Source: Escherichia phage vB_EcoS_AKFV33. From it: a DNA stretch of 64,000 nt. Where the stretch lies: sequence record NC_017969.1; one strand, written 5' to 3'. The first letter of the stretch is position 1; each line of letters begins with the position of its first letter. Shown in pieces: positions 34,897 to 62,948 of the stretch. The position numbers and the translations under genes were made by a program. The notes below the pieces were generated by a model, which was not told the origin of the DNA, did no database searches, and saw only the letters and a list, made by a program, of their open reading frames with translations.

Positions 34897-34936
34897 AGAA
34901 AAAACCCCAGCGGATTTTGTCCGCTGGGGTTTCTTA
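34897..34936. terminator. bidirectional rho-independent terminator at the early/late convergence point
   Basis: CCCCAGCGG-ATTTTGT-CCGCTGGGG hairpin flanked by an A-run upstream and a T-run downstream. Confidence 0.85.
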
Positions 34937-35270
34937 TTATGATATTAGCTAATATTTTTAGTTTGCCCCTATTTGAGTGGGTTATTTAGATGTTTTTAGT
35001 GCCACTATCCCTGCCACCAAATCCTACGTTTGTCTACTTAGATACTAGACAAATCCTAGTAGACTACAAGGGTTGGGGCTACTCTAGGCCTATCTCTACC
35101 ATGCCAGGATCATGAATGCCTTTTAAGCTCCGTTGTTATATTTGGTATATTAAAATACTATACCCTCTCGTTGGCGATAACACCGAAGTTGGCCATACAT
35201 ATTACGGCCAACATCAGAATAGGATAGAAAATTCTACATCTACAGAATTTTTATAGGAATCCAGGTAACG

Positions 35271-36944
35271 TTACTTCTGTACCATTAGGTTGACCAGCTC
35301 TCTGAGTTCAGCTAATTCAGCTTTCACCTCAGCCAACTCCCTATCCTGCTCCTGTACTACTGCCACGATATCTGCTAGTATCGCACGATCGTTCAGGTTG
35401 AGCATTCCAGACATGCTACCGGAAAACGCGTAAATCTCATCCGCTTCTTTAGCTTCCTGAGCAATAAATCCTCGATCTTTACGCCCATCTGATAGCCATT
35501 CAAACTCACGCGCAATAAGGTGGTTAATACGGTCGCGGGGGGTGTTACCTTCCGTATTGGTGATGTCTGTGATCTTGTCTTTTAGGCGACGATCTGAACC
35601 GCCAGGTTGGATAAGGCCTAAATTAGTGTCGATACATGAATTTTCCCATTTAAACGCCCAATATTTATTACCGCCTACGGCTCTAGTAATATTTAGTTGT
35701 ACGGCTCTAAATTGTGTACTACCTTCACGTATGCCACCAAATTCCCATCTATCATCATACCAATGACCACGAATAATATTTACGTAGGTATTACCTTCGC
35801 TACTAGGAGTAACATTGAAAAACTCGATGGCGTTGGGCTCTCCAGTATTACCTACATAGAAACCACCTAGCCCTGGAACCGTTACCGCACCACCTGAGCT
35901 AACAGACATTACCTCCCTAGACGTACCTTCTTGTCCTTTCACTTCAAGCGCAGAATAAAAATCTGTCCCAAAACGGATCTTGGTACGCAATTGTGAGACG
36001 TATGCTTCCGCACCTGCAATATTGTACACAGATCGCACAGCGCCGCCATATGCCGTTACGCCGCTTGCGGGTTCGGTTGCATCGCCATTAATGACACTCC
36101 ATGATGTATTTGCTGCAATAAATCCACCGGACGCACGGATTACCCACACACCGACAAAGTTGCGCGTAAGGATTTCATCAGTGGATGCGCCATAAATCGG
36201 ACTTGAAATTGAAGCATTGAAGTCACAGGTGTTATAACGTCCAGAAAGAGCTGTACTTCCTGGTGGGATTCCGTCACCTCTTCCGTCAGGGAAAGCATTA
36301 TTGCTTGCATTAAAACAACCACCTGTTTGACCTAATACTTGGCCGTAGGTTTGAGAGGCATAAGTGGTGAAAAAACCTGTAATATTAGGCGCAGCGGATT
36401 CGAACAGTTGCCCATTTGCACCACTATTCCCACCATCTCCACGGCCATAAAGAGCACGTATTGATCCCTCCTGCACCCCATTCTTATCTGGAACACGAAA
36501 GGTTGTTGTCCCATCCCCAGATGAGTACTTACCACGCTGAAATTTATCCGCTAACCATACGGAATCCTCTATAACACCAACCATTTGAGCGTATGCCCAA
36601 AGCTCCGGCCAGTCAGCCCTGTTAAGAAGCTGCCCATCAGAAACTACTTCATAAGGTTGAATATACGCACGGCTATCGCGAAGGTGGAAATCACCAACAC
36701 CGTAATTCATAACACCATTCATAGTGGGACCGACTGTACCGGTGTTAATCTTATTCTCTACCCAACGTTTAGTTGCGGCATCATAGTCCCCAACAGGATC
36801 TCCCGCAAGAGGGGTGGACCCAATAGGACGCACATTTAACCATGCTGCTGCACGGTCTGCAAGATCGGATAAATTGTTGTTTTTATCCATCTTTTCGTCT
36901 TTAAGTTTTGTAATATCCTGGGGGATATTAGTATAAGTAGTCAT
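35271..36944 (-). CDS. tail fiber protein with C-terminal intramolecular chaperone (peptidase S74-like) domain
   Basis: 557 aa; C-terminal GGSDRRLKDKITDI ... coiled-coil tail typical of auto-cleaving fiber chaperone domains; Gly-rich beta-rich body. Confidence 0.7.
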   Translation of the reverse strand: MTTYTNIPQDITKLKDEKMDKNNNLSDLADRAAAWLNVRPIGSTPLAGDPVGDYDAATKRWVENKINTGTVGPTMNGVMNYGVGDFHLRDSRAYIQPYEVVSDGQLLNRADWPELWAYAQMVGVIEDSVWLADKFQRGKYSSGDGTTTFRVPDKNGVQEGSIRALYGRGDGGNSGANGQLFESAAPNITGFFTTYASQTYGQVLGQTGGCFNASNNAFPDGRGDGIPPGSTALSGRYNTCDFNASISSPIYGASTDEILTRNFVGVWVIRASGGFIAANTSWSVINGDATEPASGVTAYGGAVRSVYNIAGAEAYVSQLRTKIRFGTDFYSALEVKGQEGTSREVMSVSSGGAVTVPGLGGFYVGNTGEPNAIEFFNVTPSSEGNTYVNIIRGHWYDDRWEFGGIREGSTQFRAVQLNITRAVGGNKYWAFKWENSCIDTNLGLIQPGGSDRRLKDKITDITNTEGNTPRDRINHLIAREFEWLSDGRKDRGFIAQEAKEADEIYAFSGSMSGMLNLNDRAILADIVAVVQEQDRELAEVKAELAELRELVNLMVQK

Positions 36945-36954
36945 TAATCACCTC

Positions 36955-37221
36955 TTATGCCCATTTGCGTACACCGGGATTCTCAATAATGAATTGTTCG
37001 ATGTCTGACAAGTCTATATTATCTCCTACTATCCTTATATTTATGTAATAACCTTCTTTACCAATAATAGCAGGGGTTTTACTTTTAGGGTCGTCTACCA
37101 TGGGGATAAAACCAATTTCATCTATAAACACGTTACCGTAGTTTGTCTTAAGCCACCCACTATCAACGACAACATCCCGATAATGTTTTTCATCCTTGAA
37201 TTGTAAATTAATATCTTTCAC
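36955..37221 (-). CDS. hypothetical protein between the two fiber genes
   Basis: 88 aa. Confidence 0.4.
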   Translation of the reverse strand: MKDINLQFKDEKHYRDVVVDSGWLKTNYGNVFIDEIGFIPMVDDPKSKTPAIIGKEGYYINIRIVGDNIDLSDIEQFIIENPGVRKWA

Positions 37222-39576
37222 TTAAACTTTCTCCCGCATTTGACTATCTGTTAATACTCTATTCCATATTCTAAGGTTACGAATATGACCATACAATTTA
37301 GTTGAATCTGAAGGTCTACCGCCTATTTCTACTAACGAGTCCGAGTCCGTTCCTTTCCAGGTAGAACCGTGTGAGGTACCACCCTTATTCCCATTAACAA
37401 ACGAGGTGACATCTCCATTACCACTAAAAATAAAACCAAATACATGAGGAGAAAATTGTTTTTCAAATGCATAACCTCTGGATAATATAGTTGATCCACC
37501 CTCATTTACCACATACGCGTAAGGTGTAGCGGAGGTACTGTCAAATTCCGCAACAAATGCTTTTCCTTCTACGTAGTATGGCTTATTATCAATTATCATT
37601 GGGTATGTATTATTTAGTTGAAAGCTATCCCAGTTAATACTTACCTCAGCAAGTAATGAAATATTAGTTCCTGAGAAATTATTTCTTGCAGGTATAGTAA
37701 TATAATCTACAGCCCTTGTTGCAGGTGTACTCCCCGTAATAATGAAGGAGGATGCACAAAACCCTTTTTCAAATTGCGGGGTACAAAATGATATTGTATC
37801 TCCAACCTGTACAGGTTGATCATTCTCCCTACAATAATTTACAGATCCAATAGAGTTACCACCACGTTCTACAAATTTACATGTAGCTTCAACTTTCAAC
37901 CATCCGTTGTCTTCTCTATATATTCTATGTGTTATAGTACCTCTCCCTTCTACTACAGAAGAAACTTCACCGGTTTCGCAACTTATGAAAGATCTAGCGC
38001 CGAGAATAAGACCTCCGTCCTCACCTACTAAATAAAATTGCGGTGTGATATAGATACCCAAGTTTGCTTTTACTCGTATAGATAAAGAAACGTATTCATT
38101 TTGCTGACAGTTGATTGCATTTACTGTTTCACAATAAAATAATGAAGGATACTCACCTTGTGCTTTTTCGTTTACTGTCGCCGTTGCATATGCAAAACCA
38201 TACTTATCAATATTATAAGTAACATCACTACGGTATTTATCCGTATTTAATGAAGCGGGGTCATTACTATAAGTGATATAGTTTGTCCGCTGGCCTTCAA
38301 TTAAGAGTCCTTGCTTTTCAAATCTAGGCTCATCGATATTGGCAATACAAAACTCACCGTGTTTGTTTATATATGTTGCATTTGATGCGCGGGAGAAACT
38401 GACAACCTTATCCGAGGGCATTGTAATAACATCTTCACCAACTGTTATTTTCTTGTATCCTGGCGAGTAACCTGCAAGCATATCAAGCGAGTCATTAAAG
38501 GGAATCCATACGTCAGGGAATGGTTGAAGATCCGGACCCCTGTTAGCTGCAACTTCCGCACGGTCTGCTTCTGCTTTTGCACGGTCTGCTTCTGCCTTAG
38601 AGCTGTTTGCACTACCAGCAGCATTGCTAGCTTGTTGCCCGGCCTCAATAGCACTATTACCAGCTTGTGTAGCAGAAGCAGCAGCTTGGTTTTTTAAAGC
38701 TGTTGTATCAGATACCGCGCTATCCTTAATACCTTGTGTATCCGTTTTTAATTGCTCAACATCTGCTTTTAAAGTTGTTATCTCGGATACCGCGCTATTT
38801 TTAATGGCCTGGGTATCAGATTTTAACTGTTCTACATCCGCTTTTAAAGCTGTTGTCTCTGTTACAGCACTATTTTTAATGGCCTGGGTATCAGATTTTA
38901 ACTGTTCGACATCTGATTTAAGTCCTTGAATAGCAGCTACAGATTGGCTGGCAGAAGTTGCAGATCCAGCAGCATTAGTTTCACTAGTCTTCGCATTAGT
39001 TTCGCTAGTCTTCGAGTTGGTTTCAGAGATTTTTGCCGCAGATGCCGATGCAGCAGCTTGCCCAGAAAATATTTCCGCCTCATTCCTAAAACCGCTAGAA
39101 TCAGCCGCTGATTGAGCTGCATTAGTCTCACTTGCCTTTGCATTAGTCTCACTAATTTTTGCAGCAGCAGCTGATGCGTCTTCACTAGTCTTCGCATTAG
39201 TTTCGCTAGTCTTCGAGTTGGTTTCAGAGGTTTTTGCAGCTGCAGCTGATTCTGCAGATTTAGTAGCAGAAGCGGCAGACTGAGTAGCAGAAGTAGCTGA
39301 TTGAGTAGCAGAAGCTTCTGAAGCTCCAGCGGAAATAGCAGCATCATTTTCAGATTCTTTAGCATTAAGTTCTGAGGTTTTAGCAGCTATTTCAGAATCT
39401 TTTGCAGCCGCAGCAGATTTAGCGGCGGCCTCTATAGAAGATACTAACTCATTAGCAGTAATAGAGCTAATAGAATTTCCAAGAGTTACTGTGTATCTAG
39501 GAAATTTACTAGCAGTAGCTTTAGTATCATCAATATTTAATATTTGTTGTACAATAATCTTAGTAGTTATTGCCAT
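37222..39576 (-). CDS. L-shaped tail fiber protein (pb1 N-terminal-like) with C-terminal LamG-like domain
   Basis: 784 aa; N-terminus [17 protein letters not shown]...SKFPRYTVTLGNSISSITA and the SETNAKTSE repeats resemble T5 pb1 as I recall it; C-terminal GHIRNLRIWNRVLTDSQ is typical of a LamG jelly-roll. Confidence 0.75.
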   Translation of the reverse strand: MAITTKIIVQQILNIDDTKATASKFPRYTVTLGNSISSITANELVSSIEAAAKSAAAAKDSEIAAKTSELNAKESENDAAISAGASEASATQSATSATQSAASATKSAESAAAAKTSETNSKTSETNAKTSEDASAAAAKISETNAKASETNAAQSAADSSGFRNEAEIFSGQAAASASAAKISETNSKTSETNAKTSETNAAGSATSASQSVAAIQGLKSDVEQLKSDTQAIKNSAVTETTALKADVEQLKSDTQAIKNSAVSEITTLKADVEQLKTDTQGIKDSAVSDTTALKNQAAASATQAGNSAIEAGQQASNAAGSANSSKAEADRAKAEADRAEVAANRGPDLQPFPDVWIPFNDSLDMLAGYSPGYKKITVGEDVITMPSDKVVSFSRASNATYINKHGEFCIANIDEPRFEKQGLLIEGQRTNYITYSNDPASLNTDKYRSDVTYNIDKYGFAYATATVNEKAQGEYPSLFYCETVNAINCQQNEYVSLSIRVKANLGIYITPQFYLVGEDGGLILGARSFISCETGEVSSVVEGRGTITHRIYREDNGWLKVEATCKFVERGGNSIGSVNYCRENDQPVQVGDTISFCTPQFEKGFCASSFIITGSTPATRAVDYITIPARNNFSGTNISLLAEVSINWDSFQLNNTYPMIIDNKPYYVEGKAFVAEFDSTSATPYAYVVNEGGSTILSRGYAFEKQFSPHVFGFIFSGNGDVTSFVNGNKGGTSHGSTWKGTDSDSLVEIGGRPSDSTKLYGHIRNLRIWNRVLTDSQMREKV
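38693..38917 (-). repeat. 3 x 75 bp in-frame tandem repeat inside the fiber gene
   Basis: Three near-identical 75 bp units encoding the 25 aa repeat DVEQLKSDTQAIKNSAV(T/S)E(T/I)T(A/T)LKA; further degenerate Ala/Ser/Thr-rich repeats lie at 38970-39300. Confidence 0.8.
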
Positions 39577-39998
39577 TATCTAGTTACCCCATCACTGATA
39601 AATACTTTACCCTCCATTATACGAAAAGAGCTAATAGCTGATCCTATGACATCTCGTGTCATAATTATATCATAGTATCCTGCAAAACGTTGGCGAGGGT
39701 TATACTTATCTCTCTCTTTGGTAGCTTTTTCACCGATATTATCTATAGCCTCTACAGGTAAACTTATAGCTATAGCACCTTGAGCAGCATCAATAATTTT
39801 AGTAGTAAAAGATGCCAAAGTTTCCGCGTTCTCATCAAGCCCGGCCTTTATAGTACCCCTTAGGGAATACCCTGTTAAGTTAACAGGGGTATTTGTAGGT
39901 GGATAAGTACTATCATCAACATCTAAGAATTGCATCATTAGACCATAAGGTACTTTCTCATCTATCACTAAGTCTATAACTCTATTTTCAGTACTCAT
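39576..39998 (-). CDS. tail tip collar protein (p132-like, by synteny)
   Basis: 140 aa; position between pb4-like and the fiber gene as in T5. Confidence 0.45.
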
Positions 39999-61190: not shown

Positions 61191-62948
61191 TTAGGTAAGG
61201 CGTTGAACTGTTACTCTTAATCTAGGTAGGAAAACTGCACTACCTAAACTTACGTGCATAACTACCCCTAATTCTACATTTCCATTTCCTAGATTTTTAA
61301 CTGTATATATGAAACTATTTCTACTTAGTGCATTATTAGGTGTGTATCTAAATGCAGATGTAGTATGAAAGGGTACTAAGTAACCTACAGGTAATGTTAA
61401 AATCTGGTGGAATATTGCATCTCCATTACTATAGCTATAAGCCCTTCTTCCCTGCACCTGAAATACACCGTTATTCCATGTATTAGCTGGAACACCAGCA
61501 CAATTAAGATTACCAGATATAACTTCAGTAGTAAGAATAACGGTAGCATTACCTCCTGGAATTCCTAGTCCAATAGTAGATAAAGCCACATATCTATCTC
61601 CAGTTCCTGGATAGTAAGGAGTAATATCATCCCCCATGTAAGAACTACCAACATTTCCACTAAAAAGTCTCAGAGGAACTGAAGAGGGCCCCCAAACAAC
61701 ACCATGTTCGTTACCAATAGTATTATTACTTGAGTTTACGTACCATTGCTTACCAGCTCCGAATTTGTAAATACTAATTTGAGACTTAGCCCCTCCGTGA
61801 TCTACAGGAGACCATAAACTCCCGTTACTAGAACCTACAAGTTCACACCTTGCAGTGGTATCTCCGAAGGCTCCAGTGTACGCTGCGTTATTTCCAATGA
61901 ATTCCATATCTGGCCTATAGCCTAAGTTACCAAAAGCATTTTGGTTGATAAACTTATACCCAGTATTCGGTAAACTAACCCCTTTTATAGTAAAATTAGA
62001 GGGAGAAATAAGAATATCTGAACCAGTAAAAGGATTACCAGAAATACCCATATTACCATTAGAATACCTCAGATTAAGTACATACCAAATAACCTTAGTA
62101 GGAGTTATGTTATACCAATCCTGTAATATTGTAGCATTACCAGATTGATTAGCTAAATTAGTTGTAGAACCTCTACAAACAAATCTATTACCCCCATCAT
62201 GATACATAGTATTTACATTACCAGGAAGACCTTGTCTTACCCCACCATACCCACGTATATTAGAGCTACAAACATAAAACCAATCGTGTCCTCTGTATGC
62301 TGATCCTAAAGGAGACATCCATCCTGGGTCCCAGTAATATTGGTTATTACCATCTATAGGTACTGTACTACTATTAGTAGGAAAACCCAGCTGTGCAAAA
62401 GCTTCTGCAACAGTAATACCTACTGGAGCTCCTGCACCTGGCCTAACTATACCATGATAAGTACTATGTAGGGTGGTTCCACCAGTACCATTTCTAGAGA
62501 TAGATTCTTCATGCCCTATAGATGGGTTATAGTTATATGTTCCAGATGCCAGGCTATTACCAAATGCAAATCCACTAGTTTGGGAAACGCTAGCAAAAGA
62601 TCTAAAGGGGTCTGCTTGAGTAGCAACTATAGTTTGACCTACCTTACTCTGAGTACCATTAAGAAAAGCCCTATGAGTACCATTAATCTCAATAGCAGTT
62701 AGTATAACTCTACCTGGGTCATTAGATTTAATATTTATTATGTCAGAGGGCATCTGACATACAAAAAACCCATTTCCAGCATCACCTAACCCAGCCTCAT
62801 AAGTACCATCAACTAGGACAAATGGCATATCACTATGAAAAATACTATTATTATTTGGACTATAGTGACTATTAATGTCACCACCAGATTCAGTATTTAA
62901 AGATAGTACGGTCTTACCATCGCTATATTTTCCAGCGAAAAAACCCAT
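61191..62948 (-). CDS. receptor-binding tail protein (pb5-like)
   Basis: 585 aa, Gly/Asn/Ser-rich; transcribed divergently from an llp-like lipoprotein gene, the arrangement I recall for T5 oad/llp. Confidence 0.55.

Follow-up and report, generated by a model that had tools for sequence, protein, structure and literature searches.

We analysed a 64-kb window (the whole stretch of 64,000 nucleotides (nt)) from Escherichia phage vB_EcoS_AKFV33 (NC_017969.1), which is part of a T5-like (Tequintavirus) coliphage genome with the gene order of T5 and DT57C. Four genes on its minus strand, downstream of pb3 and pb4, probably encode a composite lateral (L-shaped) T5-like tail fibre that is assembled and acts as proposed below; we give this reading a probability of about 0.7. 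They encode the LtfC collar protein (140 amino acids (aa), 39576–39998, Pfam PF23926, E 3.9e-14), the proximal lateral tail fibre protein (784 aa, 37222–39576, phrog_1419, E 2e-222), an 88-aa accessory protein with a GTG start (36955–37221, phrog_1361, E 3e-29) and the distal lateral tail fibre protein (557 aa, 35271–36944, phrog_6921, E 2e-219). The gene order, the domain content, the homologies, the mosaic conservation and the co-occurrence of the small open reading frame (ORF) with a lectin module were observed directly. The sizes and coordinates given for the 784-, 88- and 557-aa ORFs in an earlier note on this DNA proved exact. As that note had it, the 784-aa protein has a pb1-like N-terminus, repeats and a LamG-like end, the 557-aa protein carries a C-terminal intramolecular chaperone (IMC), and T5 pb1 is a single long protein (ltf is one 1396-aa gene); LtfC and the first of the two jelly rolls described below were absent from its account, as were the conserved family of the 88-aa ORF and the correspondence of the 557-aa protein to the distal half of DT57C LtfA.

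In the proposed mechanism, trimers of the 784-aa protein would be held in the LtfC collar by their pb1/LtfA-type N-termini, with a shaft formed by a coiled coil of heptad and 25-aa repeats, and the two lectin-type jelly rolls of each chain would protrude at the distal end of this proximal fibre. The 557-aa protein would trimerise with the help of its S74 chaperone, which would afterwards cleave itself off before Ser450. Its conserved first ~40 residues would attach it to the proximal fibre's distal end, and it would present a Gp12-like domain, which is conserved, and a T5-like tip, which is hypervariable. The 88-aa protein would act as an assembly factor or a bound tip subunit of the lectin module. 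The whole fibre would bind variable surface glycans (O-antigen or similar) reversibly, by which the O-antigen shield would be passed before pb5 binds the terminal receptor; such binding is established for T5 and DT57C and is expected by analogy for the window phage. It is from homology and from the published structure prediction of a relative that we infer, for this phage, the physical junction, the cleavage, the binding to glycans and what the 88-aa protein does.

That relative is phage IrisVonRoten (Bas32), in which Gp21–Gp24 are the exact counterpart of the locus, with the same order, the same strand and all four genes homologous. The identity between the two phages was 99% for LtfC, 53% for the proximal and 47% for the distal fibre (both over their full length), and 35% for the small ORF. 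In the IrisVonRoten model (Humolli et al. 2025, PMC11990801, Fig. 12B), the proximal fibre has a protruding C-terminal galectin-like domain, considered an extra receptor-binding domain (RBD), and it carries a T-shaped distal fibre whose parts are a Gp12-like RBD1, a T5-like RBD2 and an IMC. As in the IrisVonRoten type, the proximal fibre of the window ends C-terminally in a galectin/LamG-like jelly roll (PF13385, NF048003 and Foldseek). A literature search for LamG tail fibres in Tequintavirus returned nothing under that term, the published wording being "galectin-like" (PMC11990801). Because the lectin-domain, small-protein and distal-tip alleles differ between the two phages, the specificity of the window phage is probably different from that of IrisVonRoten. 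We also noted that the IrisVonRoten proximal fibre is called Gp22 in the legend of Fig. 12 and Gp23 in the text of PMC11990801; judged by the sequences, the 796-aa fibre is Gp22, and the 92-aa ORF, a homologue of the 88-aa protein, is Gp23.

The same three-gene layout as in the window was found in Salmonella phage SIA3lw, and both of its large fibre proteins, not only one of them, were detected by mass spectrometry in preparations of this homologue phage (PMC12752171, Table 1). The suggestion in the earlier note of a branched or two-receptor fibre, similar to those of some T5-like phages, is supported; the counterpart is the fibre of IrisVonRoten, the junction is not of the DT57C LtfA/LtfB type, and the presence of several receptor-binding modules is plausible. 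Lateral fibres of the Markadamsvirinae are made of one, two or more proteins (Maffei et al. 2021), and the window locus is one more allele combination of a widespread, already described layout rather than a new principle.

At the base of the fibre, LtfC of the window is 84% identical to DT57C LtfC, which is a dodecameric collar in the cryo-electron microscopy description of DT57C (PMC10713586). By this homology it is part of the fibre apparatus, with the predicted role of anchoring the lateral fibres to the tail tip. The first 216 residues of the 784-aa protein (38929–39576; this and all other parts of the fibre proteins given below lie on the minus strand) constitute its pb1/LtfA-like part, which comprises a putative LtfC-binding N-terminus and a heptad-repeat (SETNAKT-type) coiled coil, visible in the DNA as 21-nt tandem arrays at 38972–39315. 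This part was 51% identical to T5 pb1 (E 8e-33) and 53% identical to DT57C LtfA, and matched the cryo-electron microscopy chain d of PDB entry 8hqz (Ayala et al. 2023) with an E value of 1e-34; the resemblance of the 784-aa protein to pb1/LtfA is confined to it. It is followed by three 25-aa (75-nt) shaft repeats at aa ~220–295 (38692–38919), detected by Tandem Repeats Finder with a period of 75, 3.0 copies and 83% matches. The LtfC collar and a proximal trimer with a coiled-coil shaft are accordingly the parts of the predicted structure for which homology speaks directly.

The length of the proximal fibre ranged from 537 to 815 aa among SelmaRatti (locus L001, 3856–5469), phiAPCEc03 (L002, 4126–6573) and the window, with differences that come from gain or loss of heptad and 25-aa shaft repeats. 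With the anchor and the lectin module left intact by these repeat changes, the fibre length appears freely adjustable. The homologue in phage fp01 (L018, 2839–4742) is annotated as two overlapping coding sequences of 229 and 418 aa, which suggests a frameshift or a sequencing error.

Compared with T5, the window shares the anchor and heptad coiled coil of pb1 over the above 216 aa, the adjacent LtfC, and a Peptidase_S74 domain with the SDxRLK motif. In pb1, whose role is reversible O-antigen binding, all of these fibre parts are on one chain, whereas in the window the tip with the chaperone is encoded as a protein of its own and lectin domains close the anchored chain; the tip and S74 are absent from that chain, and Pfam gave no S74 match in the 784-aa protein.

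DT57C and the related DT571/2 have in common with the window the genomic position, the LtfC collar, the N-terminal anchor of the first fibre and the replacement of pb1 by two proteins. The 557-aa protein also shares its receptor-binding body with both DT57C LtfA and LtfB (45–58% identity): it aligned end to end with the distal half of LtfA (aa 508–1073) at 45% identity, and its residues 30–357 aligned with LtfB 206–531 at 58%. On the other hand, DT57C LtfA has its own receptor-binding tip and S74, both missing from the 784-aa protein, while the lectin module and the small ORF of the window are missing from DT57C. For DT57C, Golomidova et al. (2016, PMC4728585) described a phiEco32 gp14-like docking region in LtfA (aa 223–471), besides its own C-terminal S74, and an N-terminus of ~45 aa of the phiEco32 gp15 type in LtfB, which is thought to dock on that region, giving a branch at mid-shaft. 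A branch of this style in the window, with the 557-aa fibre docked mid-shaft on the 784-aa fibre and the arms diverging independently, would agree with that proposal and with the 58% identity of the receptor-binding part to that of LtfB, but we regard it as very unlikely, as both DT57C docking elements are missing. The BLASTP similarity of the 784-aa protein to LtfA ends at aa 209, so that it has no gp14-like region, and the 557-aa protein aligns with LtfB only from LtfB residue 206 onwards, the N-termini being unrelated, so that it has no gp15-like N-terminus. Moreover, the shaft varies in length by repeat loss, as described above, yet the distal fibre gene is kept.

The composite fibre with an end-to-end junction would place the lectin module where the proximal fibre ends distally. 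In the 784-aa protein this portable C-terminal module starts with a conserved "neck" at aa 345–444 (38245–38544), followed by a first jelly roll of the GTA head-spike-fibre type at aa 425–622 (37711–38304) and a LamG/ConA-like lectin domain at aa 624–779 (37240–37707). The first jelly roll was matched by NCBIfam NF048003 ("phage head spike fiber", GTA_spike_fiber; E 6.2e-14, 52.9 bits, cut-off 36) and the second by Pfam Laminin_G_3 (PF13385; E 8.1e-9, 36.2 bits, gathering cut-off 27.6). In an AlphaFold2 monomer model, the best-predicted part was the first jelly roll, with predicted local distance difference test scores (pLDDT) of 75–93, and the model was good for aa ~445–605. Foldseek searches with the module retrieved tandem LamG, galectin and botulinum-toxin Hc (BoNT-Hc) jelly rolls as well as phage fibre tips.

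We then calculated, per 20-aa bin, the share of 24 homologues of less than 60% identity that keep the window residue. The conservation was 63–73% in the neck and at aa 605–624, compared with 15–40% in the hypervariable core of the first jelly roll and 11–35% in the LamG domain. From its conservation, the neck is a candidate trimer junction or docking surface. It is also conceivable that the lectin-like domains are a mere platform that holds the distal fibre and binds no receptor, with specificity coming from the 557-aa protein alone, as they sit at the expected junction and glycan binding by members of the lectin module is predicted only. We consider this quite unlikely, because the lectin domains are the most variable part of the 784-aa protein, lying between conserved flanks, because they are the terminal module of fibres that have no second fibre, and because their fold matches carbohydrate-binding jelly rolls. 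The related NCBIfam domain, moreover, takes its name from the RcGTA head-spike fibre, which binds capsule polysaccharide.

The neck and two-jelly-roll module was found in 2505 database proteins and 215 phage records. Among T5-like phages it is present in phiAPCEc03, NBEco002, FFH1, SP15, SelmaRatti, EC100, SIA3lw and IrisVonRoten; outside them, in the Nonagvirus/Seuratvirus members of the Queuovirinae (BRET, phiG7, JenP1 and VogelGryff), in Dhillonvirus (KarlBarth), in rV5-like myoviruses (FFH2 ORF41), and in the lambdoid phages Lambda_ev245 and phage 21 and E. coli prophages. The module of phage I14 was 98% identical to that of the window at the protein level (tblastn). In phage 21, Lambda_ev245, the E. 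coli prophages and the Nonagvirus, Seuratvirus and Dhillonvirus fibres, the same module (34–76% identity) is followed by an ORF of ~90 aa, but the anchor of these fibres is PF08400 (lambda Stf type), in contrast to the pb1 type in the window. The Queuovirinae and Dhillonvirus have, further downstream, a fibre with the same N-terminal peptide as in the window.

On the other hand, no second fibre follows the small ORF in the lambdoid prophages and Lambda_ev245, where J, lom, the fibre gene and the 92-aa ORF are followed by the gene of an unrelated membrane protein of 95 aa, and this by the end of the prophage or by cargo genes. Since the lectin module there ends the last fibre gene, it can serve as a terminal binding module, and the fibre that it ends forms a self-sufficient unit with the small partner. 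The ORF of 95–97 aa after the small ORF was considered as a truncated second fibre and rejected, as its product is hydrophobic, of membrane type, and has no relation to the 557-aa protein. This hydrophobic protein is conserved at the prophage end (L006, 8349–8636; L009, 7477–7764; L014, 5551–5844; lambdoid prophages and Lambda_ev245), and may be a moron or a membrane protein. Four records named after other hosts, OR849447.1, OR848352.1 and OR847733.1 ("Listeria phage LM 4-14-1 / 4-11-1") and MG065666.1 ("Campylobacter phage A12a"), contained T5-like or rV5-like coliphage fibre genes and are probably mislabelled or contaminated.

The lectin module and the ~90-aa ORF are thus a portable pair, which is a new point of this analysis; Humolli et al. 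(2025, PMC11990801) do not discuss the small ORF as a partner that is conserved with the lectin module. A homologue of the 88-aa protein directly follows the lectin-ended fibre gene in every locus that we inspected. By tblastn, homologues were present in 91 phage records, and in the 40 of these records that were listed, the homologue adjoins or overlaps a tail or fibre gene wherever the record is annotated. An exhaustive profile search among 1.8 billion representatives retrieved only 12 clusters, and three long repetitive proteins among these look spurious. Across ten loci, the identity of the small ORF tracks that of the lectin domains, being 80–93% where the lectin domains are 68–91% identical and 22–39% where they are 11–41% identical. 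Since the pair is also present in loci that lack a second fibre, the small protein is part of the lectin module and not of the distal fibre, which is the second new point.

Apart from its family assignment to phrog_1361, little was retrieved for the 88-aa protein itself: Pfam gave only a sub-threshold match to CrAss_Ring_1 (E 0.041), NCBIfam gave none, nothing significant came from the PDB sequence search, and the structural matches were uninformative. Its own model showed a small alpha/beta ferredoxin-like fold (pLDDT 81.6), with no sequence or fold similarity to the known fibre chaperone families of the Tfa/gp38 type. The context, though, is Tfa/gp38-like, with a gene directly downstream of a fibre gene that lacks an IMC, co-inherited with the tip. 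An analogous layout exists in phage phiR2-01, in which a first fibre without IMC is followed by a small gene annotated as a gp38-type chaperone and then by a second fibre. As a proteomic source for the small protein, phiR2-01 was rejected, its locus being of the DT57C type with an unrelated 128-aa chaperone.

The location of the 88-aa gene between two fibre genes could also point to a structural connector, comparable to the "knee" proteins gp35/gp36 of T4, that would join the proximal to the distal fibre instead of assisting the lectin domains. Homologues in BASEL genomes are annotated as "tail fiber protein", and the initial ~22 residues of the distal fibre vary together with the allele of the 88-aa protein, both of which would suit a connector. 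We find it unlikely, since homologues occur with no following distal fibre gene in E. coli lambdoid prophages, Lambda_ev245 and the rV5-like FFH2; the homologue was also not among the identified SIA3lw gel bands, where bands that small were not analysed (PMC12752171). We take the 88-aa protein to be a partner of the lectin module that is matched to its allele, most likely as its assembly factor or a bound tip subunit, given that the proximal fibre lacks its own chaperone. More tentatively, and at somewhat less than even odds, the ~90-aa family phrog_1361 as a whole could be an allele-specific assembly factor or tip subunit of the lectin module, with the two genes forming a cassette that moves among siphoviruses, rV5-like myoviruses and lambdoid prophages and that adds, in this phage, a third, independent glycan specificity to the two of the distal fibre.

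The distal fibre protein starts with an N-terminal peptide at aa 1–40 (36825–36944; M-T-x-T-x-IP-x-DIT-x-LK...NLSDLAD), a candidate docking element. Across eight compared loci that have a downstream fibre-like protein, this peptide had 52–100% identical residues, with at least 70% in six of the eight and the lowest value, 52% at 65% coverage, in fp01, where the first 60 residues of the distal protein lack the motif. Because the peptide is retained in KarlBarth gp30 (Dhillonvirus) and VogelGryff Gp24 (Seuratvirus), in which the bodies are different, we take the N-terminal ~40 residues to be the best candidate for docking. Next comes a conserved body at aa 41–283 (36096–36824), which would correspond to the Gp12-like RBD1 of IrisVonRoten Gp24; the RBD1 assignment in Gp24 comes from PMC11990801, and the 557-aa protein was ~90% identical to Gp24 over aa 1–180. 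The Pfam Collar match in this protein was weak (E 0.022, 15.2 bits, below the cut-off of 24).

The body is followed by a hypervariable distal tip at aa 284–449 (35598–36095; T5-like RBD2), which had only 8–33% identical residues to the compared homologues, in contrast to the conserved aa 1–283, and DNA similarity to most relatives ends at ~36094. The C-terminus, aa 450–557 (35274–35597), is the IMC, with a Pfam Peptidase_S74 match (PF13884) at aa 450–501 (E 4.9e-8, 33.6 bits, cut-off 22). The motif SDRRLK at aa 450 aligns with SDARLK at residue 1264 of T5 pb1, where the chaperone starts, and autocleavage is predicted before Ser450 (GG/SDRRLKDKI). For the SIA3lw homologue of the 557-aa protein, the mass listed is that predicted for the full protein, 64.3 kDa, and is uninformative on cleavage (PMC12752171).

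Several points weigh against the composite fibre as proposed or against parts of it. The docking place of the 557-aa protein is predicted from the conserved N-terminal peptide and the published IrisVonRoten model, and NLSDLAD also occurs internally in DT57C LtfA, so it may be a generic fibre motif. For the lectin module, the confidence of the monomer model is no more than moderate (mean pLDDT 60.6) and the neck is disordered (pLDDT below 45), so that the model is uninformative on the junction. Physical linkage of the DNA alone could explain the co-variation of the 88-aa protein with the lectin allele, and the same linkage could explain that of the first ~22 residues of the distal fibre. Finally, it is by prediction that the lectin domains, assisted by the 88-aa protein, would form a glycan-binding module. 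Which O-antigen types a T5-like phage can pass is determined by its lateral tail fibres, so their modularity matters for predicting and engineering host range, and swaps of the lectin domains should probably include the small downstream gene.

The fibre locus lies between pb4, whose domains were recognised by Pfam PB4 (E 2e-197), and the early genes on the dUTPase side, as in T5 and DT57C. The tail genes of the window were ~96–97% identical at the DNA level to those of phages KS_S14, IME178 and Lindwurm, and the nearest records over the fibre locus showed ~91% identity. The 784-, 88- and 557-aa genes are tightly packed, each with its own ribosome-binding site (RBS): the GTG of the 88-aa gene comes directly after the stop codon of the 784-aa gene and is preceded by the RBS GGAG, and the ATG of the 557-aa gene has the RBS GAGGTG ahead of it. 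A bidirectional intrinsic terminator at 34899–34935, with a 16-bp stem and T runs on both strands, is the convergence point of the late fibre operon and the dUTPase-side operon; T5 has an annotated bidirectional terminator at the equivalent position. Between this terminator and the stop codon of the 557-aa gene, ~335 nt (34936–35270) contain no sizeable ORF, and at the equivalent place T5 has a shorter gap with an annotated promoter.

Elsewhere in the window, ARAGORN detected no tRNA genes, and thus the tRNA cluster typical of T5-like phages lies outside it. Upstream of the terminase genes, 61191–62948 on the minus strand encodes a pb5-type receptor-binding protein of 585 aa; its identity was 99% with the protein of Salmonella phage WP85 and 66% with the one of NBSal005. 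Since NBSal005 was grouped with the BtuB-binding BF23 type (PMC10644984), the terminal receptor of the window phage is, judging from this match, probably BtuB-like.

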